This document shows positions 2,167 to 23,088 of a stretch of 24,000 nucleotides of DNA, piece after piece. The number at the start of each line of letters is the position of its first letter. Positions within the stretch are counted from its first letter, which is position 1. Under the pieces are notes generated by a model. The model was not told the origin of the DNA. It made no database searches and was given only the letters and a program-made list of their open reading frames with translations. Source of the stretch: an uncultured delta proteobacterium (GTDB lineage: Bacteria; Desulfobacterota; Desulfobacteria; Desulfobacterales; CAWDIC01); assembly GCA_963802265.1 (NCBI GenBank), contig CAWDIC010000007.1:169608-193607 (forward strand), given 5' to 3'. A program made the position numbers and the translations under genes.

Positions 2167-2210
2167 ATAAAATCGCAGGGCGATTTTATATGACGCGACT
2201 GCGTCGCTCC
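2167..2210 (-). repeat. Double-hairpin (DH) element, copy 1
   Basis: ATAAAATCG caggg CGATTTTAT atgac GCGAC tgc GTCGC tc. On the minus strand it sits 26 nt upstream of the ThiS-like start. Confidence 0.85.
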
Positions 2211-2224
2211 ATAAAGGGCTTTTA

Positions 2225-2426
2225 TATCTCACAGAGACAGAGCACAGAGTTTTATTCGAATTTTTCAAAGAAGATTCAGATTTTAGCCCAATCTTCGCTT
2301 ATCCTTGTTTTATTATCAATATAACGTATTTTAATATATACGTTTTCCTGATTTTTCCTCTCAAAAAATCAGGAAAAGAACAATCTTTGTGATCTCTGTG
2401 GGCTCGAGCGAAGCGGGCGAGAGATA
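2225..2426. mobile_element. CTCTGTG-terminal inverted-repeat element, copy E1 (MITE-like)
   Basis: Left end: TA TCTC ACAGAG ACAGAG CACAGAG. Right end: hairpin 2343-2377 (loop CCTCTCA), then CTTTGTG at CTCTGTG GGCTCGAGCGAAGCGGGC GAGAGA TA. Confidence 0.7.
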
Positions 2427-3493: not shown

Positions 3494-3530
3494 ATAAAAT
3501 TATTACACGATTTTATATAGCGCGACGACA
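3494..3530 (-). repeat. DH element, copy 3 (degenerate)
   Basis: ATAAAATtattaca CGATTTTAT atag cGCGAC gac..; the second arm of the GC hairpin is decayed. It starts 3 nt after the transporter stop. Confidence 0.6.
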
Positions 3531-3726: not shown

Positions 3727-3783
3727 GGTTCATTGGGTTCGTTGGGTTTGACGACGGACAACGAGCAACAAGCAACCCACAAC
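3727..3783 (+). repeat. GT-rich then CA-rich short-period array in the epimerase leader
   Basis: GGTTCATTGGGTTCGTTGGGTTTG followed by ACGACGGACAACGAGCAACAAGCAACCCACAAC. The two halves are roughly complementary, and the second contains the ACGGACAAC motif. Confidence 0.7.
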
Positions 3784-3847
3784 ATTAATGACCTTGCTGA
3801 AAGCGACAAATTGAAGGGTGAATGACCATAAAGACGTTTCATTCATT

Positions 3848-3881
3848 GGCAAACTGGCGTAACTGGCCAACTGGCTAAACC
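3848..3881 (+). repeat. AACTGGCN octamer array
   Basis: GGCAAACTGGCGTAACTGGCCAACTGGCTAAACC, 17 nt upstream of the epimerase ATG. Confidence 0.75.
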
Positions 3882-3897
3882 AAAAAAGGTGTATACA

Positions 3898-4942
3898 ATG
3901 TCGTTTAAGTTTAAAAATGTATTGGTAACCGGAGCAGCAGGGTTCATTGGTTTTCACCTTTCGCTGCGACTGTTGAAAGAGGGTTACCAGGTAACAGGCC
4001 TGGACAACCTGAATGCCTATTATGACGTCAAGCTAAAGGAATCACGACTTGAACTACTCAAAAAGCACGACAAATTCAAGTTTCAAAAGGTCGACCTGGC
4101 CGACCTAAGCGAACTGGAAGCACTTTTTAAGGAGACAGAACTATGAAGTTGTCGTCAACATGGCGGCTCAGGCAGGCGTTCGCTATTCCCTAACGAACCC
4201 CCACGCCTATGTCGATGCCAATATTGTCGGTTTTGTGAATATTCTTGAATGCTGCCGTCATTCAGCGTCAAGCATCTGGTGTATGCGTCGTCCAGTTCCG
4301 TGTATGGCGCCAACACCAATATGCCGTTTTCGATTCACCACAATGTGGATCATCCGGTTTCCCTTTATGCGGCTTCCAAGAAAGCCAACGAACTCATGGC
4401 GCATACCTACAGCCACCTGTACAAGTTGCCATGTACCGGACTCAGGTTTTTTACGGTATATGGTCCATGGGGGCGTCCGGACATGGCGCTCTTTTTGTTT
4501 ACACGGGCCATTATCGAAGGCAAGCCCATCAAGGTTTTCAACCATGGCAAAATGCTGAGAGATTTTACCTACATCGATGACATCATCGAAGGCGTTTACC
4601 GCGTTATGCATAAACTCCCAGAGCCAAATTTATCGTGGAGCGGGTGATGCACCCGATCCGGGTACATCCTACGCCCCTTTCAAATTGTACAACATCGGGA
4701 ACAACAATCCCGTCGAACTTACTGAATTCATCGCAGCCATCGAGGAAACACTTGGCAAACAAGCCCAGAAAGAATACCTCGACTTGCAGCCAGGCGATGT
4801 GCCTGCCACTTATGCCGATGTCGACGATTTGATCAATGATGTTGGGTTTAAGCCGTCCACGCCGCTAAAAGTCGGGATCGCACGTTTCATCGAGTGGTAT
4901 GAGAATTACTATTCTTATAAAATCGTGAAACGATTTTATTGA
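3898..4942 (+). CDS. NAD-dependent epimerase/dehydratase (UDP-glucuronate 4-epimerase-like); three frameshifts
   Basis: Motifs seen: [14 protein letters not shown] Rossmann motif, [30 protein letters not shown] (YxxxK) and [14 protein letters not shown], spread over track ORFs 3889.., 4160.., 4249.. and 4577..4942. SD AAGGTG lies 7 nt before ATG 3898. Confidence 0.8.
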
Positions 4943-4958
4943 CGCGACGATGGCGCTC
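4917..4958 (-). repeat. DH element, copy 4
   Basis: ATAAAATCG tgaaa CGATTTTAT tgac GCGAC gat GGCGC tc. It encodes the last codons (YKIVKRFY stop) of the epimerase. Confidence 0.85.
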
Positions 4959-5063
4959 TATTTGACTGATTAAAAAATTTTTTAGTTCGGACAGCCTTGA
5001 AGGCTTATCAGTGTTTTACAAGATCTACAGGGTTTCAGTTCTTACGGGCTTTTGAAGGTGCAT

Positions 5064-5103
5064 AGCGACAGTCGCATTAAATAAAATCGCATAGCGATTT
5101 TAT
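5064..5103 (+). repeat. DH element, copy 5
   Basis: A GCGAC a GTCGC attaa ATAAAATCG catag CGATTTTAT. It lies 54 nt upstream of the leader-peptide ATG and is inverted relative to copy 4, about 105 bp away. Confidence 0.85.
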
Positions 5104-5156
5104 ATTAACATGATCAGGGTTTTCATAGAATACCTTGAAATTAAAGGATTAATATT

Positions 5157-5204
5157 ATGAATAATTTTTCGGGCAATTATTATTTTTATTACTGGCTACT
5201 ATAA
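5157..5204 (+). CDS. Candidate leader peptide MNNFSGNYYFYYWLL (15 codons, 7 aromatic, 6 consecutive)
   Basis: ATG 5157 is preceded by AAGGA (5144-5148) at 8-nt spacing. Codons read AAT AAT TTT TCG GGC AAT TAT TAT TTT TAT TAC TGG CTA CTA TAA. It is followed by alternative helices and a terminator, and lies upstream of the DAHP synthase gene. Confidence 0.55.
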   Translation: MNNFSGNYYFYYWLL

Positions 5205-5253: not shown

Positions 5254-5296
5254 AAAAGCCGTGGCAAACTAAAAACTGCCACGGCTTTTTTTTTTT
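5254..5296 (+). terminator. Intrinsic terminator (attenuator 3:4 helix)
   Basis: GCCGTGGCA (5258-5266) pairs with TGCCACGGC (5277-5285) around a 10-nt loop. An A-run precedes it and 11 consecutive T (5286-5296) follow. Confidence 0.75.
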
Positions 5297-5349
5297 CGCA
5301 TAGAAAACTGTACAAGCTGATAGGTGAAATGGTTAATTGTAGGTGGAGT

Positions 5350-5591
5350 TATCTCTCGCCCGCTCCGCTCGAGCTCGCAGAGTTCTCAGAGTTTTTCATT
5401 TTGCTGATTTTTTGAGAGGAAAAATCAGTAAAAAATAATTTTAACTATATGTTGCAGTAAAATTAGACTTTTTTGTGGCTTTTCGATACTTTAATTAACC
5501 AGATGATAACATGTGATGATTTATTGAGAATCCTCCTCTCAAGGATTCTCAATTAATATTCTCTGTGGCTCTGTGATCTCTGTGAGAGATA
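5350..5591. mobile_element. CTCTGTG-TIR element, copy E2
   Basis: Left: TA TCTCTC GCCCGCTCCGCTCGAGC t CGCAGAG tt CTCAGAG, then hairpin 5404-5428 (loop TGAGAGG). Right: hairpin 5524-5552 (loop CCTCTCA), then CTCTGTG g CTCTGTG at CTCTGTG AGAGA TA. It ends 31 nt before the aroG ATG. Confidence 0.75.
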
Positions 5592-5622: not shown

Positions 5623-6708
5623 ATGAAACAGACACAGGACCTTCGGGTCAGGGACTATAAGAATTTGATGAGCCCGAGAGAACTGGAAAAGACACTTCCA
5701 ATGACGACCGAAGCCAACGAGACTGTCGTTGAGGGACGCAAGGCAATTGAGGACATACTGGCACGCAAAGATAAGCGCCTCCTGGTTATTACAGGCCCTT
5801 GTTCGATCCACGATGAAAAGGCAGCCTTTGAATATGCTGAAAAATTGTGCGATTTGAAGAAAAGGGTCGAAAAAACACTTTGCGTGGTCATGCGGGTCTA
5901 TTTCGAAAAACCACGTACAACGGTTGGGTGGAAAGGCATGATCAATGATCCTTATTTGGATGGCACCTGCGACATGACCGAAGGGTTGGTAAAAGCTCGC
6001 CAGATATTACTAAAAATCACCGAAATGGGAATACCAACAGCAACGGAATTGCTGGAGACCATCACACCGCAATATGTTGCCGACCTGGTGTGCTGGGCTG
6101 CCATCGGGGCACGTACAACCGAATCGCAGACCCATCGGGAGATGGCAAGCGGTCTGTCTATGACGGTAGGGTTTAAAAACGGTACGGACGGGAACCTTGA
6201 CACTGCCATCAACGCCATGCTCGCCGCGCGTGCCCCCCAAAGTTTTTTAGGAATAGATCCTGAAGGCCTGACAAGTATCGTAAATACAAATGGTAATCCG
6301 TCTGGGCATATTGTACTGCGAGGAGGTAAACATCCCAATTACGATTCTCGCAGCATCGAGGAAGCACGTATGGAGCTCATCGGTAAAAATTTGCCGGATA
6401 CGATTATGGTCGACTGCTCCCACGCCAATTCCAAAAAGAAATTTCAAGGCCAGGCACTTGTGTGGAAAAACATCATCGATCAGCGCATCAACGGGAATGA
6501 TGCCATCATCGGTATGATGATGGAGAGCAATTTATTCGAAGGAAACCAGAAATACAATGGTGATGCTTCGGCTTTGAAGTACGGCGTATCGATTACAGAC
6601 GAGTGCATTTCATGGGAAACAACCGAAAGCTTGCTGCTATATGCACATGAGAAACTGGCAAACCGTACCAACCGGTCAATAGGACTGAGGACGCAGAGGA
6701 CTAAGTAA
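5623..6708 (+). CDS. aroG: 3-deoxy-D-arabino-heptulosonate-7-phosphate synthase, class I (AroF/G/H type)
   Basis: Track ORF has the hallmarks [38 protein letters not shown] and VDCSHANS. The last ~10 codons (IGLRTQRTK) are encoded by a GGACTNAG repeat array. Confidence 0.9.
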
Positions 6709-6787: not shown

Positions 6788-6843
6788 TCCTTGAGCATCC
6801 TCTTGCTCAAGGATTCTCTAATAAATACGTCTGTGACTCTGTC
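6788..6843 (+). repeat. Half element E4 (right-end type)
   Basis: Hairpin TCCTTGAGCA tcctct TGCTCAAGGA (6788-6813), then GTCTGTG a CTCTGTC. It lies 19 nt upstream of the CM-aroE ATG. Confidence 0.6.
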
Positions 6844-6861: not shown

Positions 6862-7979
6862 ATGCAAACAAAGCAAAAACCCAACATCGGCGTGCTTCGA
6901 GATGAGATTGACGCCATCGACAAGCAGATTCTCGAGTTGATCAACCAGCGTATTTCGATTGCCGTTGAAATTGGAAAGGCCAAAGAGCAGAGCGGCACCC
7001 AGGTTGTCGACAATGCCCGTGAGCTCGCTTTAATCAAGCGGCTTTTAGAGCTCAATAAGGGTCTTTTGAAAAACAGCGCTTTGCGCCGTATTTTCCATGA
7101 TATCATTACAGCATCGCGTGAAGCCCAAAGAGCGGAGGCAACGCCAAGCCTCGGCCCTGATTCCCAAGCCCTTTTCTGTGTTTTCGGTGATCCGGTTGGT
7201 CACAGTCTCAGCCCGGTAATGCACAACAGTGCTTTTGCTTACACAGGCTACAATGGCCTTTACATGGCATTCAAGGTGAGCGACATCTCCCAGGCGATTG
7301 CCGGTATGCGTGTATTGGGAATCAAAGGCGCCAGCATTACGATCCCGCACAAGATTAATGTAATGGGCCAAATAGATGAAATCGACGATATGGCCAAGGA
7401 TATTGGTGCAGTGAATACTGTCGTCAACCAGAATGGCGTTTTACGAGGCTTCAACACGGACTGTCATGGCGCAACTGCGGCATTGTTGAAGCAAACTAAA
7501 ATAGCCAACCGTAGCGTAGCGATTTTCGGCGCAGGAGGGGCGGCCAGGGCGATCGGTTTTGGTATCGTTGCCGAGAGTGGCAAGGTAACAATCTATAACC
7601 GATCTAAAGACAAAGGCGAGGCCCTTGCAAAAGCATTGAATGCAAATTTTTATCCATTATCAGAGATTAAGCAGTTAGAATGCGACATATTGATCAATAC
7701 GACTTCTGTAGGTATGTCACCCCATGTGCAGGCAACTCCAATTCCGGGAAAACTGTTGAAAAAAGAAATGGTCGTCATGGACATCGTCTACAACCCCATC
7801 CAAACGCGTTTCTTAAAGGACGCTAAAAGGCAGCTGGATGCACGGTAATCGAAGGAGTCGACATGTTCGTTTATCAGGGCGCCTCCCAGTTCGAACTGTG
7901 GACCGGTAAAAAAGCTCCGGTGCAGGTAATGAAAAAAGCAGTCTTGGATGCAATAAATAAAAATGAGCGCGGTGAATAG
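6862..7979 (+). CDS. aroE: Chorismate mutase (AroQ class) fused to shikimate 5-dehydrogenase; one -1 frameshift near 7829-7830
   Basis: The N-terminal ~90 aa read LRDEIDAIDKQILELINQRISIAVEIGKAKE...ELALIKRLLELNKG (CM type 2). Then comes FCVFGDPVGHSLSPVMHNSAF...SITIPHK...NTD...IFGAGGAARA (AroE). The C-terminus continues in another frame as AAGCTVIEGVDMFVYQGASQFELWTGKKAP up to TAG 7977-7979. Confidence 0.85.
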
Positions 7980-7993
7980 TAGGATGGTTTTTA

Positions 7994-8209
7994 TATCTCT
8001 CGCCCGCTTCGCTCGAGCCCGCAGAGCTCTCAGAGATACATTATAGTTGCCTGATTTTGAGAGGAAAAATCAGGCCAACAAATAAGATCTTAGAACATTG
8101 TATGCTCGATAGGCAAGAAGCGATACCGAAGGTGAGCTATAAAATCAGAATCTTCCCCTCAAAGATTCTGAAAAATAACTCTGTGCCTCTGTGGTCTCTG
8201 TGAGAAATA
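7994..8209. mobile_element. CTCTGTG-TIR element, copy E3
   Basis: Left: TA TCTCTC GCCCGCTTCGCTCGAGC c CGCAGAG ct CTCAGAG, then hairpin 8050-8074 (loop GAGAGGA). Right: hairpin 8145-8171 (loop CCCCTCA), then CTCTGTG c CTCTGTG gt CTCTGTG AGAAA TA. Confidence 0.75.
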
Positions 8210-8221
8210 ATAATTCTACTT

Positions 8222-8262
8222 AAGCGACACGGTCCTCATATAAAATTAGTGGAGCATTTTAT
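8222..8262 (+). repeat. DH element, copy 14 (degenerate), carries the aroA SD and start
   Basis: AA GCGAC acg GTCct cat ATAAAATta GTGGAG cATTTTAT G. Compare copy 10. Confidence 0.6.
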
Positions 8263-9527
8263 GTATCAAGTCAAAACACAGCCAATTAAAAATACGACCA
8301 TAACCGTTCCCGGGTCCAAAAGCTTCACCCATCGTTTCCTGATCTCTGCGGCGCTGGCAGATGGACAAAGCACTCTGAAAAACTGCCTTCACAGTGAAGA
8401 CACCACTTATACGATGTCCGCTTTACAACAAATGGGAGTCGCCCATAAAAAACAGGGCCAATCGGTTGTTGTTGAAGGCACGAGCGGAGATTTAAGTGCA
8501 CCTGCCGAGCCGATATACCTTGGCAACTCCGGTACATCCATGCGGTTGTTGACAGCTTTGGCAGCCATAAGCAATGGGAAACATGTTTTGACGGGCACAG
8601 AGCGTATGTGTCAGCGTCCTATTGGTGATTTGATCGAAGCGCTTACGCAGATAGGCATCGATGCCCACTCGAAAAATGGGGATGGTTGTCCTCCGGTTGA
8701 AATCAAAGGCGGGCAGCTTGCCGGCGGTAAAGTCGATCTGAATTGCAAAACCAGCAGCCAGTTTCTTTCCGCTCTGTTGTTGATTGCGCCTTATACGACC
8801 GAGGGACTCGATATTCACGTGATCGAGGGGCCGGTATCAAAGCCGTATATCGACATGACGATCCAAACCATGGGCAAATTGGGCGTCGATGTTGATAGCG
8901 AAGGATATCAAAAATATTTTGTCCAGGGGGGGCAGAAATATCAGGCCGGTGAATATTTCGTTGAAGCCTGATTGCTCCCAGGCCAGTTACTTCTGGGCGG
9001 CCGCAGCGATTACCGGTGCTTCGATTAAAATTGAAGGCATTCAACAGGATTCTATCCAAGGTGATGTCCGGTTGGTTGAAATTTTTAGGGCAATGGGGTG
9101 TGATGTGTTTCCGGAATCTGATGGTATCAGGGTTACAGGTGAACCTCTTCGAGCTGTCCGGGTCGATATGTCCGACATGCCGGATATGGTGCCGACGCTT
9201 GCGGTAGTCGCAGCCTTCGCCAAAGGGACAACCGTGATCGAAAACGTTGCCCATTTAAAAGCCAAAGAGAGCGATCGTATCGCATCGGTGGCCAACGAGT
9301 TGGAAAAAATGGGCATCCATGTCAAAAGGGCAGGGGATGGTTTGAGCATCAAAGGAGGAAACCCGAAAGGCGCTGAAATAGACACCTACGACGATCACCG
9401 CATCGCCATGAGCTTTGCCGTGGCAGGCCTTAAAACACCTGGTGTCGTTATAAAAAACGAAGATTGCGTTAAAAAGTCCTTCCCTAATTTCTGGCGGGTC
9501 TTTGAGACCCTATATAAAATCGCTTAA
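8261..9527 (+). CDS. aroA: 3-phosphoshikimate 1-carboxyvinyltransferase (EPSP synthase); one +1 frameshift near 8966-8968
   Basis: Motifs: VPGSKSFTHRFLISAALA, LGNSGTSMRLL, then after the shift PDCSQASYFWAAAAITG, KESDRI and DDHRIAMSFAVAG. GGAG lies 6 nt before ATG 8261. Confidence 0.9.
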
Positions 9528-9557
9528 CGATTTTATATTTGGCGCGACTTCGTCGCT
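9514..9557 (-). repeat. DH element, copy 6
   Basis: ATAAAATCG cttaa CGATTTTAT atttggc GCGAC ttc GTCGC t. It encodes the last aroA codons (LYKIA stop). Confidence 0.85.
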
Positions 9558-9603: not shown

Positions 9604-10209
9604 ATGAACATTTATTTGGTCGGATATCGCGGTTCCGGTAAAACGACTTTAGGTAAATCTTTGGCGGCCAGGATCGGTTGGCGTTTCATAGACTCAGACG
9701 ATGAAATTATAAAATCATCAGGAATGACAATTCGCGAAATGGTTGATAGCGAAGGATGGAGCGTATTCCGCGAACGGGAATGCAGAATGATAGAGCTAAT
9801 TGCCGGTATACAAAAATGCGTTGTTGCAACCGGCGGCGGTGCAGTGCTAAATCCCGGAAATATTTCTAAAATAAAAGCCAGCGGTAAAGTAATATGGTTG
9901 AAAACCAATCCGGAAACGATAAAAGCAAGGCTTTTAAAAGATACCAACACGAAAGAGCTTAGACCCTCGCTAACTGAGAAGGATTTTGATACAGAAATTG
10001 TAGAAACCCTGAAAGAACGCGAACCTCTATATAAAAAAGCCATGGATGTTGAAATCGATACGGACAATATAGATATTGATAATCTATGTGATAACTATTT
10101 TAACCACATTAGAAATATCAAAATCATCCTAAGATATTTTAGATTTTCCTTTTTCTTCCCTCTCAAAAGAAAAGGAAAAAAACTCTGTGACGCTGTGAGA
10201 GATGTTTGA
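9604..10209 (+). CDS. aroK: Shikimate kinase; the C-terminal ~25 codons read through a repeat element
   Basis: Reads MNIYLVGYRGSGKTTLGKSLA (P-loop), DSD, ATGGGAV. The tail ...IKIILRYFRFSFFFPLKRKGKKLCDAVRDV is encoded by half-element 10144-10203, so the true stop may lie earlier. Confidence 0.85.
   Translation: MNIYLVGYRGSGKTTLGKSLAARIGWRFIDSDDEIIKSSGMTIREMVDSEGWSVFRERECRMIELIAGIQKCVVATGGGAVLNPGNISKIKASGKVIWLKTNPETIKARLLKDTNTKELRPSLTEKDFDTEIVETLKEREPLYKKAMDVEIDTDNIDIDNLCDNYFNHIRNIKIILRYFRFSFFFPLKRKGKKLCDAVRDV
10144..10203 (+). repeat. Half element E5 (right-end type)
   Basis: Hairpin TTTTCCTTTT(T)CTT ccctctc AAAAGAAAAGGAAAA, then CTCTGTG a CGCTGTG AGAGAT. It lies inside the 3' tail of the aroK ORF. 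Confidence 0.6.
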
Positions 10210-10240
10210 TCATCGACTTCAACCCATCGACTCACTGTCA

Positions 10241-10316
10241 GTAACTGGCCAACTGGTTAACCGGTTAAACTGGCTAACTGATAACAGCAACGGACAACCG
10301 ACGACAAACAACTAAC
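10241..10316 (+). repeat. AACTGGCN octamer array followed by a GGACAAC/CA-rich array (aroC leader)
   Basis: GTAACTGGCC AACTGGTT AACCGGTT AAACTGGCT AACTGATA ACAGCAAC GGACAACC GACGACAA ACAACTAAC. It ends 20 nt before the aroC ATG. Confidence 0.8.
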
Positions 10317-10335
10317 ATTATATGGAGCATTATAC

Positions 10336-11424
10336 ATGTCCAGCACTTTCGGTACATTATTTAGAGTTACAACATTCGGCGAATCACATTCCAAAGGTGT
10401 CGGGCGTTATCCTCGATGGCTGTCCTCCCAAGATGTCGCTAAGCGAAGACGATATTCAACCTCAGCTCGATCGCCGCCGCCCTGGACAGAGCAAATTGAC
10501 GACTGAGACGAAGCGAAGCGGATCGTGTCACCATTTTATCCGGGGTTGAAAACGGTAAAACGTTTGGGACACCCATAGGCATGTTTGTGCCCAACAAGGA
10601 TCATCGACCAGGCGATTACAAGGCCATGCAGGATATACCGCGTCCGTCCCATGCGGATTATACCTATCAGATGAAATACGGAATTCGGCCGTCCAGCGGG
10701 GGAGGGCGGTCGAGCGCCAGAGAGACAATCGGCCGGGTTGCCGCTGGCGCCATTGCTGAGAAGATTCTTTTTGAAAGAGCCGGTGTTGAGATTGTCGCAT
10801 GGGTGAGTTCCATCGGCGATATCGATGCCCACGGAATTGATATCGGAACAAATTACACGCCTGCAAGTCGATGAATCACCGGTTCGTTGTCCTGATCCTG
10901 AGATAACCGAAAAAATGGTGCGGAAGGTAAAGGAGGTAAAAGCAGCCTCCGATTCAGTGGGAGGTATTGTATCGTGTGTTTGTCGATTTGTTCCACCTGG
11001 TTTGGGTGAACCGGTTTTCGATAAAATGGAAGCCAAGCTGGCCCATGCCATGTTGTCGATTCCTGCAACCAAGGGATTTGAAATAGGTTCCGGTTTCGCT
11101 GGATCCAGAATGCACGGATCCGAGCACAATGATCCGTTTATGAAAAAGGGGGGTGGGTTAGGGACCGTGACCAATTTTAGCGGCGGCATACAGGGAGGCA
11201 TTACAAATGGTGAGCCGATCGTATTTCGAGTGGCATTCAAACCCCCGGCAACAATTGGACTTGCCCAGCAGACCGTTGACTTTGAGGGCCAACAAGTAAC
11301 CCTGGAAGCCAAAGGCCGCCACGACCCCTGTGTCGTCCCAAGAGCCGTCCCAATCGTAGAGGCGATGGCAGCTTTAGTCTTATGCGACATGTTTTTAATC
11401 CAAGCCACAAGAAGTCACAAATGA
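10336..11424 (+). CDS. aroC: Chorismate synthase; three +1 frameshifts (10402-10404, 10520-10521, about 10840-10870)
   Basis: ATG 10336 gives [23 protein letters not shown]. It continues as [33 protein letters not shown], then [33 protein letters not shown]...RPSHADYTY..., then VRCPD...[13 protein letters not shown]...[18 protein letters not shown]. Confidence 0.85.
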
Positions 11425-11489: not shown

Positions 11490-11542
11490 ATTTTTGATTA
11501 TTTTGTGCTTTTTTGCGGCTAAAAGAAAAGAGCTTTAAACCA

Positions 11543-12289
11543 ATGAAACCAAACAACAAGCCAACCATAGGGATAATTGGATTTGGCCGTTTCGGCAAAC
11601 TGATGGCACGGTATCTTGCCGAGGATTTTAAGGTCGTCGTCTATAACCGAACTGATAAATCAGCGGCAATTAAAGAAATCGGAGCAAACCCAGCATCGCT
11701 GTCATCGGTGTGTAACCAGGATATTGTTATCGTAAGCGTACCCATATCGACCATGCAAACGGTGTTGAGAGAAATTTCGCCCTTACTCAAGCCCGATGCC
11801 TTGGTGGTCGATGTTTGTTCGGTCAAGGTATATCCGACGCAATGGATGAAAGATGCACTCCCGGAAACAGTTTCAATCCTGGCAACACATCCCATGTTTG
11901 GTCCGGACAGTGCAGGTGAAACGCTTAATGGCTCTAAAATATTCGTGAGCCCAGAGCGAATTACAGAAGATTGTTACATAAAGATAAAGAATTATCTTGA
12001 ATCTAAAGGTTTGCTTATTATTGAAGGCACACCAGAGGAACATGATCAACAGATTGCTGTCAGTCTTTCATTGACCCATTTTATCGGCCGTGCATTGTCC
12101 AGCTTCGGAGCGGCACCCCTGAATATCGATACCGAGGGATATAAAAGACTATTGCACATCCTAGAGGTGGTTCAAAACGACACCTGGCAGCTTTTCATGG
12201 ACATGAACCGCTATAATCCTTATGCTGCTGAAAATCGTAAGGCGTTTATGGATGCGATGAAAGCAATCGATGCGAAACTGAAAGTGTAA
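11543..12289 (+). CDS. tyrA: Prephenate/arogenate dehydrogenase
   Basis: IGIIGFGRFGKLMARYL dinucleotide fold, DVCSVK, THPMFGP. An alternative TTG start at 11513 is possible. Confidence 0.8.
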   Translation: MKPNNKPTIGIIGFGRFGKLMARYLAEDFKVVVYNRTDKSAAIKEIGANPASLSSVCNQDIVIVSVPISTMQTVLREISPLLKPDALVVDVCSVKVYPTQWMKDALPETVSILATHPMFGPDSAGETLNGSKIFVSPERITEDCYIKIKNYLESKGLLIIEGTPEEHDQQIAVSLSLTHFIGRALSSFGAAPLNIDTEGYKRLLHILEVVQNDTWQLFMDMNRYNPYAAENRKAFMDAMKAIDAKLKV

Positions 12290-12461: not shown

Positions 12462-12906
12462 ATGTCTAAAAATAAAAAAATCTTGGTCATCCACGGTCCC
12501 AAATCTGAACATGCTCGGTACACGCGAACCCGATATTTATGGCAACATGACTCTCGCCGAGATCGATGCCAAACTGCTAAAAATCGGAGAGACACTCGGG
12601 ATAACCGTAGAAACATTTCAGTCCAATCACGAGGGAGCTATCGTAGACAAGATCCAGGAAGCTGTTGGAAATTGTCAAGGTCTGATTATCAATCCTGCAG
12701 CATACACTCACACCAGTATCGCCATCCGCGATGCCCTCCTTTTACTCGATGTCCCAATCATCGAGGTCCATCTTTCAAACGTTTACAAAAGAGAATCCTT
12801 CCGGCACAAATCGATGATATCAGACATCGTAACAGCTAAAATGGTAGGTTTCGGCGCAAATGGGTATTTTTTAGCAATTGAGGCGATAAGTCAGTTGGCC
12901 AGTTAA
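12462..12906 (+). CDS. aroQ: 3-dehydroquinate dehydratase, type II; one +1 frameshift in the AAA run at 12501-12503
   Basis: MSKNKKILVIHGP joins NLNMLGTREPDIYG after removing one A. Then come FQSNHEGAIVDKIQEA, IINPAAYTHTSIAIRDA and IEVHLSNV. Confidence 0.85.
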
Positions 12907-12947: not shown

Positions 12948-13019
12948 TTTATGGCGATTTATTCACCGCCCATTCGCGCCGCTCGTTCAAGATCTACCCT
13001 GTATCTATACCTTTTGGTA

Positions 13020-13062
13020 GAGCGACATCGTCGCGTCACATAAAATCGTCTAACGATTTTAT
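13020..13062 (+). repeat. DH element, copy 7
   Basis: GA GCGAC atc GTCGC GTCAc ATAAAATCG tctaa CGATTTTAT. It shares an extended left flank TTTTGGTAGAGCGACATCGTCGCGTCA with copy 8. Confidence 0.9.
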
Positions 13063-13064
13063 CC

Positions 13065-13098
13065 TTGAAAACCGTTCAGGTATGATATATTGTCATAC
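13065..13098 (+). promoter_or_regulatory. Candidate toxin-antitoxin promoter with operator-like inverted repeat
   Basis: TTGAAA (13065-13070) with TATATT/TATTGT at 15-17 bp. It overlaps the inverted repeat GTATGA-N7-TCATAC (13080-13098) just upstream of the RHH antitoxin gene. Confidence 0.4.
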
Positions 13099-13678: not shown

Positions 13679-13708
13679 TATCGGGCATATAAATCAAGGT
13701 TTTTGGTA

Positions 13709-13751
13709 GAGCGACATCGTCGCGTCATATAAAATTGTTCCACGATTTTAT
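13709..13751 (+). repeat. DH element, copy 8
   Basis: GA GCGAC atc GTCGC GTCAt ATAAAATtG ttcca CGATTTTAT. The T opposite G would be a G-U wobble in a +-strand RNA. Confidence 0.9.
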
Positions 13752-13769
13752 GCCCGAAGGGCTGAGTGT

Positions 13770-13899
13770 TTTATGGATTTTCCCCTCCCTGGCCTGTAGG
13801 TCCGGAAGATCGTACTGGGCTCAGGAAAATCCATAAAGAAATAGTACTCTCTCTGCGTTCTCTGCGTCTCGAGCGAACACAGTGAGCGGGTGTGAGATA
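13770..13899 (+). repeat. Half element E8 (right-end type, expanded loop)
   Basis: A 14-bp perfect stem TTTATGGATTTTCC / GGAAAATCCATAAA encloses a 40-nt loop that starts CCTCCCT and ends CTCA. Then comes CTCTGCG tt CTCTGCG t CTCGAGCGAAcacagtgaGCGGGTGTGAGATA. Confidence 0.6.
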
Positions 13900-16201: not shown

Positions 16202-16269
16202 TTGTGATAATAGGACTACCCAGTTAAAAAACGAAGATTATTCTAAAGTTGAATGATCCGCATTAGAAA

Positions 16270-16312
16270 AAGCGACAACGTCGCGTAATATAAAATCGTG
16301 GAGCGATTTTAT
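16270..16312 (+). repeat. DH element, copy 10, carries the SD and start of the LamG-VanZ gene
   Basis: AA GCGAC aac GTCGC GTAAt ATAAAATCG TGGAG CGATTTTAT G. GGAG lies in the loop, and the A and T of the ATG (16311-16313) lie in the stem. Confidence 0.9.
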
Positions 16313-17455
16313 GAGAACAATCAGGCCTTTGTTTTTGCTAATTATTATTGCGGCAGCCTTATTTATAATGATTGCGTATTTTGGGTTGAGACCCAAGGAT
16401 TTTAACTCAGTAAACCAAGTTAGCTGGCTTGAAGATAAAAATGGAATTCGGGTGGGGAAATATAACCTCTGTTACGCCATTGACCCATTAAAACAAACAA
16501 ATGGAATAATGACATACCCACTGCTTTTACAATAGAAATTGCGCTGAGATCCCAAGGCACACACAAGGATGGGTTTCAATTTATCATGGTCTTTCACAAT
16601 GGAAATGATTCCGAACAGTTGTTAGTCGGTCAATGGCGATCCTCTATCGTTGTCATGAATGGCAATGACTATGCCAATAAGCAAAAAACTCCAAAACTGT
16701 ATATAAAGGAGGGCTTACCGTCTCATAAAACACGCTATTTAACGATAACGACAGGATTAGATGGGACGTGTGTTTACCTTGAGGGCCAACTGGTTAGAAA
16801 GAGACGCAATTTGTTGCTTAAGATACCGACTGGTACTGTCGAAACAACACTCGTTCTGGGCAATTCCGTAAACGGCAGACACCCTTGGAAAGGTGAATTT
16901 TATGGCTTTGTACTATTCCCCTTTCAGTTGAATGCCAAGGATATTGTCATCCACCATGACGAATGGATGAAAAGTAACTCATTTTCCTCTTTTAAGAAAT
17001 ATTCTCCAAGTATTATGTATATGTTCGACGAAAATTCCGGTCATAAAGCGTTAGATCATTCAAGTGGTGGGCACCACCTTAACTTACCGGCCCAATTTCG
17101 CATTTTGCAAAAAGAAATCCTTGGCATCCCTCAACGAACCGACCTAACTACCAAATCATCAATTCAAGATATATTGCTTAACTTATTAGGATTTATTCCC
17201 TTTGCCATCGCTCTAAACGCGGTTTTTTTGCATGCCAACCGATGGACGGCCAAGCATGGCGCCTTATTGACTTTGTTGTTGTGCTTTACCATTAGCCTAT
17301 CCATTGAGCTTATACAGGCTGAAATGCCATCGCGTAGTTCACAACTAATTGATTTAATTTTAAATACATTAGGATCCGGCCTCGGCCTGGTGGTTTTTGG
17401 GCACTGGTATTCAAAGATCACGACGAATAATGAGCGACGCCGTCGCGACATATAA
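16311..17455 (+). CDS. Membrane-anchored LamG/concanavalin-like domain protein with a C-terminal VanZ-like membrane domain; one -1 frameshift about 16510-16585
   Basis: N-terminal TM segment RPLFLLIIIAAALFIMIAYF. LamG-like segment FTIEIALRS...WRSSIVVMNG...LYIKEG...LVLGNSVNGRHPWKGEFYGFVLF. C-terminal hydrophobic VanZ-like segment ...SRSSQLIDLILNTLGSGLGLVVF. Confidence 0.6.
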
Positions 17456-17474
17456 AATCGTTGCACGATTTTAT
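17432..17474 (+). repeat. DH element, copy 11
   Basis: GA GCGAC gcc GTCGC GACAt ATAAAATCG ttgca CGATTTTAT. It encodes the VanZ gene tail (RRRRDI stop) and lies 40 nt upstream of the small ORF. Confidence 0.9.
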
Positions 17475-17514
17475 TGTTTGACAAGATTTTACATATTCCA
17501 TTAGAGTGATAATT

Positions 17515-17712
17515 ATGAAATCAAATACAGAATCCCCACCAAAAAGCTCGAAGAAAGCATCTGGTTGCTCCAAGCGTCGGTCAGGGGCTGACCGACGTCA
17601 GGAATTCATCACGCCCTACATGAATTTTGTTTACAATGGCGATGAAAAACGATCGGATGAAGAGCGCCGCAAAGCTGAGGAACGACGCAAAGAATCGCGA
17701 AAAAAAGAATAA
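17515..17712 (+). CDS. Small (65 aa) highly basic Arg/Lys/Glu-rich protein of unknown function
   Basis: MKSNTESPPKSSKKASGCSKRRSGADRRQEFITPYMNFVYNGDEKRSDEERRKAEERRKESRKKE. It is bracketed by inverted copies of the double-hairpin element. The SD is weak, so coding status is uncertain. Confidence 0.45.
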   Translation: MKSNTESPPKSSKKASGCSKRRSGADRRQEFITPYMNFVYNGDEKRSDEERRKAEERRKESRKKE

Positions 17713-17716
17713 AATC

Positions 17717-17759
17717 ATAAAATCGCACAGCGATTTTATATGTCGCGACGATGCCGCTC
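17717..17759 (-). repeat. DH element, copy 12
   Basis: ATAAAATCG cacag CGATTTTAT atgtc GCGAC gat GCCGC tc. It starts 5 nt after the small-ORF stop and is inverted relative to copy 11. Confidence 0.85.
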
Positions 17760-18220: not shown

Positions 18221-18401
18221 CGGAGCGTACAGGTGGTACGTGAGTATTGAAAAACTTGGGATAACGCCGTAGTTGAGCATGAGATGAATTTATAAATGGC
18301 ATTTTAGAAGCGGAGCGTGCAAAGTAATACGTGAGTATTGAAAAACACAGAATAACGCCGTGATTGGGTGCGAGGTGGCTTTATAATTGGCTTTTTAGAA
18401 G
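18221..18401. repeat. Two tandem ~90-bp direct repeats
   Basis: Units 18221-18310 and 18311-18401 share CGGAGCGT, ACGTGAGTATTGAAAAAC, ATAACGCCGT and TTTTAGAAG (roughly 70 percent by eye). The second unit overlaps the stop and last codons of the beta-barrel gene. Confidence 0.7.
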
Positions 18402-19775
18402 CGATATTCGTAGGCAGCGGTAATCGAGTTTCGATTGATCAGATTCCCCTCAACACAAATCACCGAATGCCCAGTAAGGTGATATTCAACTCCCCCAAAG
18501 AACCCCCAGTGCTTCTTTTCTTCCAACTCATCTTCATAGCGATATGTTGTAAACGGGGCAGGTAGGTTCTCGAGCTGTCTTCGGGTGGTGGTTTCACGGT
18601 AGTCTAACCAATTGCCCCCCCCAAATACGATCAAACGGGAATATACAATACCGCCTTCCAGTTTGAGCATTATTTCTCGCCAATCAGATGACTTGTGCCA
18701 TTTGTCGCCGGCTTTTGATTTATAATCCTCCTCGAACTGCCCCTTGTGGAAATCGGCCAGAAAAGCAAAGTAAAGCTTAGATGAGGTATAAAAGTCAGTT
18801 TCATACAGGTTTTGGCGCAATCCAAGTCCGTATACATACCTGGGCTCGGAAGATTCGAAGTCATAATTCGCGCCAAAGTCAGCATAAAGCTCCACGAAGT
18901 CGGTTAAACCAAAACGGGCATTGATCGTGGTCATGTGGAAAGAGGCCGGGAAGTCGTTTCTGAAGTCCGTGGTGACAGGAACAGTTGTTCTTCCAGTGTC
19001 CGTTACGCGGATTCGCTTATCAACTTCCGTATCCATTTCAATATAGGAGTGTTTTAGGCTCAAAGCGAATGAACTCTCACGCAGGTTGCGCCCCAGCCCC
19101 CTGTTTAGTTCCTTTATTTTTACAGCTCTTTGTGTTGGCTCGGGCATTTTTGCATCAACGTCGTCCTGGTGTTTGTCTTCGGTGATTTCAGCCGTTGCAG
19201 CCGCCGCCATGGTGGCATTCTGGGGAGAGGATGATGCCATCTCTGAACCGGCGGTTGTCTCTTCCATTGAAGGGGCTTCTGTGTCCACCATTGATGAAGC
19301 GCTGACAGGCGCAATTTTTTCTTTTAAAGGAATCACGGTTCCCTGTTCAGCAACTTCAGGTTTGGGTTTTTCCTGGAACTTATCGAAAAGCAAAGAAGGC
19401 TTGCTAATGATTAGCGCCTGACCCGTAAAAAGCCCCTTTTTCCTTAAATCCAGGGCCGCCGCGTCCGCTTCAGGTCTAGACTTCATAAGGCCCAATGAAA
19501 ACCCTGTTCCAGAATTCGGATTCCGTGACTTCGGTATATCTGATCACGGTTTCATAATTTAAATTTTTCAACTCGTTGGAAAATTTTACGGCCCTGTCTT
19601 CTGTTTTAAACGATCCCACCTGGATGTAGAAAAAATCTCCTTCCGCACAAAAAACTAAAGTCGGGAAAATGCAAAAAAGTGCAAAAAATAAGGATACAAG
19701 TACGGCAACCCAATGCTTTCGCCGAGCACACCTTGATTCGGCCTTTCCGTAAATTAGCCTTTTGATTTTATTCAT
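18395..19775 (-). CDS. Exported SPOR-domain protein fused to a C-terminal outer-membrane beta-barrel; one frameshift about 19476-19495
   Basis: Signal/anchor HWVAVLVSLFFALFCIFPTLVFCAEG. SPOR-like FYIQVGSFKTEDRAVKFSNELKNLNYETVIRY...WNRVFIGPY joins RPEADAAALDLRKKGLFTGQALII. An Ala/Thr/Glu/Ser linker follows, then alternating-pattern strands ending YEYRF. Confidence 0.65.
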
Positions 19776-21000: not shown

Positions 21001-21073
21001 CTTTTTGTGGCTAAGATTATTAAAAATATTTTATTCGGCCATGTCGGCCGAATAATGTCTGCGTGGGTCTGCG
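21001..21073 (+). repeat. Half element E6 (variant)
   Basis: TTTTTGTGGCT is shared with the E2 centre at 5470-5480. Then comes the hairpin TTATTCGGCC atgtc GGCCGAATAA (21031-21055), then GTCTGCG tgg GTCTGCG. Confidence 0.45.
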
Positions 21074-23072: not shown

Positions 23073-23088
23073 AGGCACGCTATTTGCA
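23073..23088 (+). promoter_or_regulatory. Probable sigma-54 promoter AGGCAC-N5-TTGCA
   Basis: at AGGCAC gctat TTGCA ag has correct GG..GC spacing and one departure (A for T at the first position). It lies about 295 nt upstream of the activator gene at 23383. Confidence 0.5.

Follow-up and report, generated by a model that had tools for sequence, protein, structure and literature searches.

In this study, we report on a family of repeated, non-coding elements found in a stretch of 24,000 nucleotides (nt; hereafter the window) from an uncultured delta proteobacterium of the Desulfobacterales (GenBank assembly GCA_963802265.1, contig CAWDIC010000007.1, positions 169,608 to 193,607). Their ends are built from tandem units of about eight bases on the heptamer CTCTGTG, and we refer to them as octamer elements. 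We judge it rather probable that they are non-autonomous mobile DNA of a foldback type, resembling REPINs and MITEs (miniature inverted-repeat transposable elements), which would be moved in trans and inserted without duplication of the target. It represents an elaborated form of a kind of repeat that is very widespread but hardly characterised, and its spread across phyla makes it worth following up.

A first-pass annotation of the window had recorded four full and four half copies. All eight were found by reading the letters (Table 1), and further scans of the window revealed no additional ones. That description was largely accurate, including the dispersed, non-coding character of the family, its inverted ends and the lack of a transposase in the window. 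The idea of a mobile element is supported by the data given below; the transposon family then proposed (IS630/Tc1-mariner) is not.

Architecture and polarity of the elements

The alignment of all ends in the window revealed a common module, which consists of a hairpin, a short AT-rich spacer, CTCTGTG-type units, an optional 17-mer (GCTCGAGCGAAGCGGGC) and the terminal sequence GAGAGATA. The units are spaced at 8 or 9 bases and number two or three in the window ends, the general description of the unit comprising two to four heptamers. A full element is formed by two end units inverted around a variable centre, and a half copy by a single unit. The half copies at 10144-10203 and 13770-13899 are clear, that at 6788-6843 is degenerate and that at 21001-21073 is weak, with GTCTGCG units only.

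These copies are far more numerous than expected by chance. Searched at up to 2 mismatches, CTCTGTGNCTCTGTG gave 6 matches in the window versus 0.03 expected, and degenerate arrays of at least two units were found 12 times versus 0.26 in shuffled sequences (shuffle maximum, 3). The window copies are 80-93% identical to each other. Since they differ from one another and the family recurs in independent assemblies, an origin as assembly artefacts was discarded.

The tandem units, the terminal GAGAGATA, the 17-mer and the subterminal hairpins had all been noticed in the first-pass annotation. The 17-nt insert was correctly taken as optional, but its polarity had been missed, given that it is present at exactly one end of copies W1 to W3. 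Judged by its position, W2 and W3 are inverted relative to W1. The 17-mer itself folds into a small G+C-rich hairpin, in which GCTCG and CGGGC, with one T-G pair, enclose GCGAAGC. A metagenome scan for the 17-mer together with the terminus yielded 39 loci, from sediments and wetlands. Among 17 tabulated full elements, comprising 14 metagenome elements chosen for a 17-mer at one end and window copies W1 to W3, none (0/17) had a second 17-mer at the opposite end. The elements are polar because the 17-mer sits at exactly one end. In the polar form, the left end is composed of (T)TCTCTCACAGAG, CACAGAG-type units and a hairpin with the loop TGAGAGG, and the right end of a hairpin with the loop CCTCTCA and CTCTG[TC]G units, after which come the 17-mer and GAGAGATA.

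In 35 of 88 non-redundant ends, versus 4.4% of control windows, the 60 nt upstream of the units contain a perfect hairpin of 7 bp or more. These 35 hairpins use 32 distinct stems; 14 of them have the loop CCTCTCA, and most of the others a loop that differs little from it, such as CCCCTCA, GCGTCTCAG or TCGTCTCC. In the subterminal hairpins the loop is conserved and the stem is variable.

Insertion polymorphism and target site

The first-pass annotation had proposed a search for presence/absence polymorphism in relatives, and such polymorphism was found at the aro operon of the window. In locus L122, whose DAHP synthase is 93% identical to that of the window, a right end of the element (CTCTGTGACTCTGTGCCCTCTGTGAGATATAA) lies upstream of the gene at the same site. 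In L121 (89% identical), the order of epimerase, leader peptide, terminator and DAHP synthase is kept, and the terminator is separated from the ATG by about 45 nt without any element; downstream of the DAHP synthase gene this locus bears a different array, of CTTAGCG-type units. In the more distant L251 and L252 (about 73% identity), the aro operons are compact, with gaps of -4 to 31 nt versus 150-400 nt in the window. These comparisons favour insertion, and we take them to show that an aro operon which was compact in the ancestor received the copies in its leader and between its genes.

No duplication of the target accompanies the insertion. Direct repeats flanking the polar elements did not exceed in length those of mismatched controls (2.82 versus 2.84), nor did those flanking 110 cross-phylum hairpins (2.6 versus 2.74). 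It had been suggested that the borders were compatible with duplication of a TA target; this was not borne out, as only about 5 of 18 elements (metagenomes plus window) have TA directly ahead of their left end, TT, TG, GA or CC being found in others. At the other end, the right terminus is conserved and the ATA of GAGAGATA belongs to the element. With respect to the general traits of MITEs, the octamer elements are small and non-coding, with terminal inverted repeats and a stable fold, and a target-site duplication of fixed length is absent.

Distribution across phyla, viral contigs and plasmids

The arm motif, defined as three CTCTGTG units at 8-base spacing (exact 23-mer CTCTGTGNCTCTGTGNCTCTGTG, 21 specified bases), was sought in a collection with one genome per species, amounting to 596 Gb. 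It was found in at least 120 genome loci, versus about 0.3 matches expected by chance according to our own estimate (both strands, equal base frequencies). Among the matches listed, the carriers belong to Acidobacteriota, Planctomycetota, Gemmatimonadota, Alpha- and Betaproteobacteria, Verrucomicrobiota, Spirochaetota, Chloroflexota, Actinomycetota, Nitrospinota, Bacillota, Bacteroidota, Chlamydiota, Chlorobiota and Myxococcota, together with one Methanotrichaceae genome bin. Most carrier genomes are metagenome bins, so that single taxonomic assignments may be wrong; isolates of Magnetospirillum, Pelomonas, Propionivibrio, Undibacterium and Sorangium are also among them. The complete genomes with these arms include OY969570.1, Sorangium So ce1099, Pelomonas caseinilytica P7 and Magnetospirillum sulfuroxidans J10.

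Among the matches listed, 63 of 66 arm pairs are arranged as a CACAGAG arm, a variable interior of 10-190 nt and a CTCTGTG arm, with borders that typically read AAC-C...G-GTT or TCAC-C...G-GTGA. Several copies per 8-kb locus are found elsewhere, and the window itself holds 4 doublets and 4 singlets in 24 kb. The related units CTCCGTG, CTCTGCG and CTTCGTG co-occur in the same loci; CACGGAG/CTCCGTG units account for 29 of 366 units, and in L019 an element of the CTCCGTG type is nested in the interior of one of the CTCTGTG type. The arm motif was also detected in 89 stretches of viral contigs, several times per contig. BLAST searches against plasmids gave no match for the window element, and the generic hairpin matched only as single arms in two cyanobacterial plasmids, both unannotated.

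At the level of sequence, heptamer arms are common to hairpin elements across many phyla and viral contigs. By its arms, the window family is a local variant of this very widespread octamer-arm family, a relationship that the first-pass annotation had missed. More tentatively, all octamer-armed hairpins might form one superfamily of duplication-free mobile elements in many bacterial phyla, viral contigs and possibly archaea, in which the CCTCTCA loop and the heptamer arrays would be recognised by a conserved enzyme acting on single-stranded DNA; the polar form with the 17-mer would be its most elaborate known variant.

Proposed mobilisation and the search for an enzyme

In the mechanism that we favour, an enzyme encoded elsewhere would copy the elements in trans. 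It would recognise their hairpin loop together with the heptamer arrays, probably while the DNA is single-stranded, and integration would take place without duplication. The logic would be that of REP/RAYT or IS200/IS605, by analogy and with enzymes that are not demonstrably those. In this regard, all-against-all clustering of the open reading frames (ORFs) of 120 loci gave no recurrent gene family near the elements, only ABC transporters, kinases, response regulators and metabolic enzymes. Such ordinary housekeeping neighbours, with no linked family, fit dispersed elements mobilised in trans.

Several observations weigh against this proposal. In about 1.9 Mb of loci, neither a mobilising enzyme nor a long element with these ends on both sides was found. 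The sole IS200-like Y1 transposase (in L096; Y1_Tnp Pfam E = 1.6e-30) is flanked by unrelated palindromes. No near-identical pair of copies was seen at different sites. The empty site of L121 is too diverged to fix the exact ends of the element, and at that site a deletion, instead of an insertion in the window lineage, is formally still conceivable. As spacer base, the units of one arm have a purine and those of the other a pyrimidine, and between arms this base makes 122 Watson-Crick matches versus 98 mismatches, which indicates that pairing from arm to arm is not strongly selected; being unmatched between arms, it suggests that each arm acts as an array of heptamer sites and not as half of a selected perfect stem. 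Finally, the heptamer is conserved across phyla, whereas repetitive extragenic palindromic (REP) sequences are normally lineage-specific.

The search for RAYT and IS200 proteins, carried out with phmmer over the same 1.9 Mb using two approximate query sequences, gave this one match. The Y1 transposase gene of L096 (5100-6010, in a Pyrinomonadaceae bin) has its own G+C-rich palindromes, CCGCCGCTGACGCGGCG and gcccggcctttcaaggccggg, on both sides; such an organisation is usual for RAYT/REP and has no relation to the octamer arms present in that locus.

Other candidates were rejected. In L013 and L038, arms 0.6-1.3 kb apart are separate elements that flank ordinary genes (hypD, hypE) and not the ends of an autonomous element. 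The candidate partners in L241, L228 and L235 are toxin-antitoxin or GxxExxY-type small genes and not transposases. It was observed that right-end-only units often follow GxxExxY-type PD-(D/E)XK or toxin-antitoxin genes (L232, L235, L228, L241), and that L235 has a complete small element, a gene and a half element in a row. An integron attC-like reading of the AAC...GTT borders was also discarded, given that the elements lie between housekeeping genes and many ends read TCAC...GTGA. A literature search with 15-mers of element sequence gave no match.

Alternative explanations

The elements could instead be structured RNA modules that act in cis and are under selection for a function in polycistronic mRNAs, for instance in their translation control, processing or stability, their spread being secondary or due to repeated origin, which we regard as unlikely. 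Their transcription within the leader and the spacers of the operon would suit such a role, as would their fold, which is strong as DNA (z = -4.8) and very stable as RNA (z = -5.6); neither strand, however, folds consistently better, the differences between top and bottom ranging from -13 to +20 kcal/mol. The conserved loops on differing stems also speak for this reading, and the loops CCUCUCA and UGAGAGG resemble the anti-Shine-Dalgarno and Shine-Dalgarno sequences, respectively. Yet no relevant Rfam family was matched at gathering or permissive thresholds (window plus eight loci), and close relatives with the same operon differ in whether they carry the elements. There is a tendency for upstream genes to share the strand that bears the 17-mer (20 versus 9; 15 versus 14 for downstream genes, with noisy ORF calls), but the orientation of the window copies relative to genes splits 2:2, with W2 and W3 antisense to this weak trend. 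Many copies in high-G+C viral contigs have at their centre a small G+C hairpin whose loop is C-GNA-G, a form that characterises very stable mini-hairpins of DNA and not RNA tetraloops. An asymmetry of G-T wobbles was set aside as a test for RNA, as the counts merely reflect the existence of the CACGGAG subfamily and are uninformative on the strand.

It has been proposed for Geobacter metallireducens that the repeats of its classes 1 to 3, considered below, are sites for a host protein of the IHF/HU type (Aklujkar et al., 2009, BMC Microbiol 9:109, PMC2700814). Accordingly, the octamer elements could be arrays of binding sites for a nucleoid or regulatory protein of the host, kept for gene regulation; we find this improbable. 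The G. metallireducens genome has 21 pairs of three TCTCCGTS[Y] repeats annotated as putative IHF sites, an assignment presented in that paper without experiment (PMC2700814). The heptamer conserved across phyla, with a spacer constrained only to purine or pyrimidine and unpaired between arms, does look like a protein-binding array, and the elements lie near gene starts and ends. Nevertheless, the IHF consensus WATCAANNNNTTR occurs in none of the window elements (its 3 window matches are all elsewhere), the 8-bp spacing puts successive sites on different faces of the helix, and the neighbouring genes lack a common function. Additionally, the sites are missing at orthologous positions of close relatives and are found in viral contigs.

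It is very improbable that the elements are MITEs of the classical IS630/Tc1-mariner type, moved by cut-and-paste into a TA target that is duplicated, since the TA-TCTCTC...GAGAGA-TA borders of three window copies, the inverted ends, the small size and the lack of coding capacity are outweighed by the scarcity of TA on the left, the conservation of ...GAGAGATA as part of the element on the right, flanking repeats not in excess, cross-phylum borders other than TA and a 17-mer on one side only. It must be considered that the protein-binding and RNA explanations are both compatible with later co-option of a mobile element.

Elements in the aro operon

The aro operon is preceded by a 15-residue leader peptide (MNNFSGNYYFYYWLL; 5157-5204), rich in Tyr, Phe and Trp, and then by an intrinsic terminator (5254-5297), which together look like a classical attenuation leader. 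The best matches of the DAHP synthase carry names of Desulfobacterales-like organisms. Weak, sub-threshold Rfam matches to His and Thr leaders fall at this aromatic-rich leader, and L121 has a counterpart upstream of its DAHP synthase gene, with the leader peptide MLTHKNSGIYYFYYWLYNNGLPEVR (1056-1133) and a terminator at about 1160-1196. W2 lies between the terminator and the start codon and is therefore transcribed whenever the operon is expressed. The earlier view that the elements form part of the operon transcripts is confirmed, co-transcription being a necessary consequence of their position in the leader and spacers.

Within the operon, the octamer elements would be passengers that are transcribed and fold back on themselves. 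On both strands their hairpins have a T-run before and an A-run after, and therefore they are not terminator-shaped; a terminator scan flagged the element hairpins only on the strand antisense to the operon. Lacking the shape of a terminator, they would preserve read-through to the downstream genes.

The positions given in the first-pass annotation need some correction. A distance of 19-50 nt upstream of start codons is approximately right for three copies (31, 18 and about 51 nt), while the others are 60-200 nt away. The elements had been placed in intergenic gaps, but the half copy 10144-10203 is inside the 3′ end of the aroK reading frame (to 10209), where it supplies roughly the last 20 codons and the stop. 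The sigma-54-like site upstream of W4 does exist, with one mismatch, although such matches are not enriched over chance.

Table 1. Position and composition of the octamer elements, the aro genes and the second repeat family in the window.
Feature	Position	Strand	Description
W1, full element	2225-2426	+	left end TATCTCACAGAG with CACAGAG-type units
W1, interior			degenerate left hairpin, AT-rich centre, right hairpin cctgattttt-CCTCTCA-aaaaatcagg
W1, right end			units CTTTGTG and CTCTGTG; 17-mer 2402-2418 (+); GAGAGATA 2419-2426
W2, full element	5350-5591	-	inverted relative to W1; upstream end TATCTCTC and reverse complement of 17-mer 5358-5374; between leader terminator and DAHP synthase gene
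W2, downstream end	5561-5591		three CTCTGTG units and GAGAGATA; adjoins DAHP synthase start at 5623
W3, full element	7994-8209	-	oriented like W2; reverse complement of 17-mer 8002-8018; starts 13 nt past frameshifted end of chorismate mutase/shikimate dehydrogenase gene
W3, downstream end	8179-8209		three CTCTGTG units and GAGAAATA
W4, full element	23116 to about 23325	none	cross-phylum type; ends AACCACAGAG... and ...CTCTGTGGTG; no 17-mer; hairpin loops TCGTCTCC; between sigma-54-like site (23073-23088) and response-regulator gene start (~23386)
Half copy	6788-6843	+	degenerate; hairpin akin to the W2 hairpin, followed by GTCTGTGACTCTGTC; ends 18 nt before the ATG at 6862
Half copy	10144-10203	+	hairpin ttttcctttttctt-CCCTCTCA-aagaaaaggaaaa, then CTCTGTGACGCTGTG, then AGAGATG
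Half copy	13770-13899	+	long hairpin, CTCTGCG units, GAGATA end; 17-mer variant with 7-nt insert at ~13867-13892; downstream of mazF
Half copy	21001-21073	+	weak or decayed; hairpin ttattcggcc-ATGTC-ggccgaataa, then GTCTGCGTGGGTCTGCGG
DAHP synthase	5623-6708
Chorismate mutase/shikimate dehydrogenase	from 6862
EPSP synthase	from ~8261
Shikimate kinase (aroK)	from ~9604
Chorismate synthase	from 10337
Prephenate dehydrogenase	11513-12289
Dehydroquinase	from 12462
Second repeat family	2167-2209(-), 2529-2580, 3494-3528(-), 4917-4960(-), 5053-5110, 9501-9545, 13012-13069, 13701-13758, 16262-16319, 17424-17481, 17712-17759(-)

Five genes of the window are each split over two or three frames (3889-4942, 7700-7981, 8249-9527, 10337-11424 and 12462-12906). 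They encode the epimerase, which is intact in L121, shikimate dehydrogenase, EPSP synthase, chorismate synthase and dehydroquinase, and the splits are probably due to indel sequencing errors rather than to pseudogenes.

Other repeats in the window

A second repeat family consists of a double hairpin, GAGCGAC-N4-GTCGC(G) followed by ATAAAATCG-N5-CGATTTTAT, in which the stems are conserved and the loops variable, the opposite of what is found in the octamer elements. It was also detected in L122 (41-87) and in L246, the L122 copy being flanked by the imperfect direct repeat TCTCTGTGAGA[T/A]ATAA. Its copies lie mostly just past stop codons; they are found within 30 nt of 4 of the 8 octamer elements and, in relatives, nested inside octamer elements. 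At 8240-8262, a degenerate member of this second family holds, in its loop and 3′ arm, the likely ATG of the EPSP synthase gene (8261) and the Shine-Dalgarno sequence GTGGAG of that gene.

In addition, tandem heptamer runs of the YAACTGG and ACAACRR types are located just upstream of start codons (3754-3781, 3846-3878 and 10238-10317). Similar short heptamer repeats in tandem are a feature of cyanobacteria and of large sulfur bacteria, and the runs also recall the class 3 sites of G. metallireducens considered below. A direct repeat of 76 nt (18237-18403; 80% identity, copies 91 nt apart) adjoins the start of the minus-strand gene 18395-19495.

Implications

Should hairpin repeats from Acidobacteriota to Cyanobacteriota, and those of their viruses, rest on a single conserved 8-base unit, a widely shared machinery must recognise it, and with its discovery the few mechanisms by which small non-coding DNA spreads in prokaryotes would gain a new one. 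The elements also matter for annotation, as they lengthen intergenic gaps, may be called falsely as small proteins and, in the case reported here, extend the aroK frame. Lying between an attenuator and its gene, they leave the operon intact and offer a natural test case of how operons tolerate or exploit inserted structured RNA. In sediment Desulfobacterales, they may serve as strain-level markers.

Comparison with known systems

The octamer elements share with the REP, BIME and REPIN sequences associated with RAYT the short extragenic palindromic units, found as singlets and inverted doublets in many, locally dense copies. Both are non-coding, lack target duplications and are tolerated between co-transcribed genes. 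The octamer elements differ in that they lack the 5′ GTAG, their ends being (TA)TCTCTC/GAGAGATA or AAC-C/G-GTT, and in that their arms are tandem 8-base units, while a REP is a single imperfect palindrome. Moreover, no RAYT gene flanked by octamer units was found in the 1.9 Mb of loci.

Bacterial MITEs such as Correia/NEMIS of Neisseria, Chunjie of Geobacter uraniireducens and Nezha of cyanobacteria likewise measure 100-250 bp; their ends are inverted, they fold stably and their interior is AT-rich. They too are intergenic and inserted inside operons without breaking them, and Correia has no known transposase. These MITEs generate target duplications, which in Correia involve TA, and Correia carries an IHF site. 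By contrast, the octamer elements have neither a TA duplication nor a central IHF site, and their ends are polar arrays of tandem units.

In their lack of target duplication, subterminal hairpins, distinguishable ends and one-ended copies, the octamer elements are similar to IS200/IS605 and to the ends of IS91 and Helitrons, and the G+C-rich hairpin 8 bases from one terminus recalls the 3′ ends of Helitrons. The two halves are inverted copies of each other, whereas the hairpins of IS200/IS605 are on the same strand. In addition, the bases before the left end are T-rich with no fixed tetranucleotide, and no HUH gene is associated. Eukaryotic Foldback elements, with long inverted arms of tandem short repeats around a variable centre, belong to another domain of life and another size range and provide an analogy of architecture only.

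Finally, the genome paper of G. metallireducens describes, in three classes, putative sites at which global regulators would bind (Aklujkar et al., 2009; PMC2700814). Class 2 comprises intergenic pairs on opposite strands at variable distance, each with three tandem repeats at 8- or 9-base spacing, as in the octamer elements; class 3 has five heptanucleotides, and the sister classes use other octamers or heptamers. In the text on classes 1 to 3, the sites are annotated as putative IHF/HU sites and called unique to G. metallireducens, and subterminal hairpins with conserved loops, a 17-mer, polarity and a cross-phylum distribution do not form part of the description. IHF/HU binding is also the interpretation given to class 2, which is described in supplementary alignments; for one pair, Gmet_I216A/B, the supplement lists no G. 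sulfurreducens counterpart. IS110-family insertion sequences are reported at a fixed distance from class 1 sites (PMC2700814), and by this analogy the octamer elements may, like REP, BIME and REPIN sequences, be targets of IS110-family elements. The printed consensus of class 2, to which the comparison is confined, corresponds to the CTCCGTG variant, one base off CTCTGTG. On the strength of this consensus and of the arrangement given in that source, class 2 is the closest prior description of octamer-armed elements.

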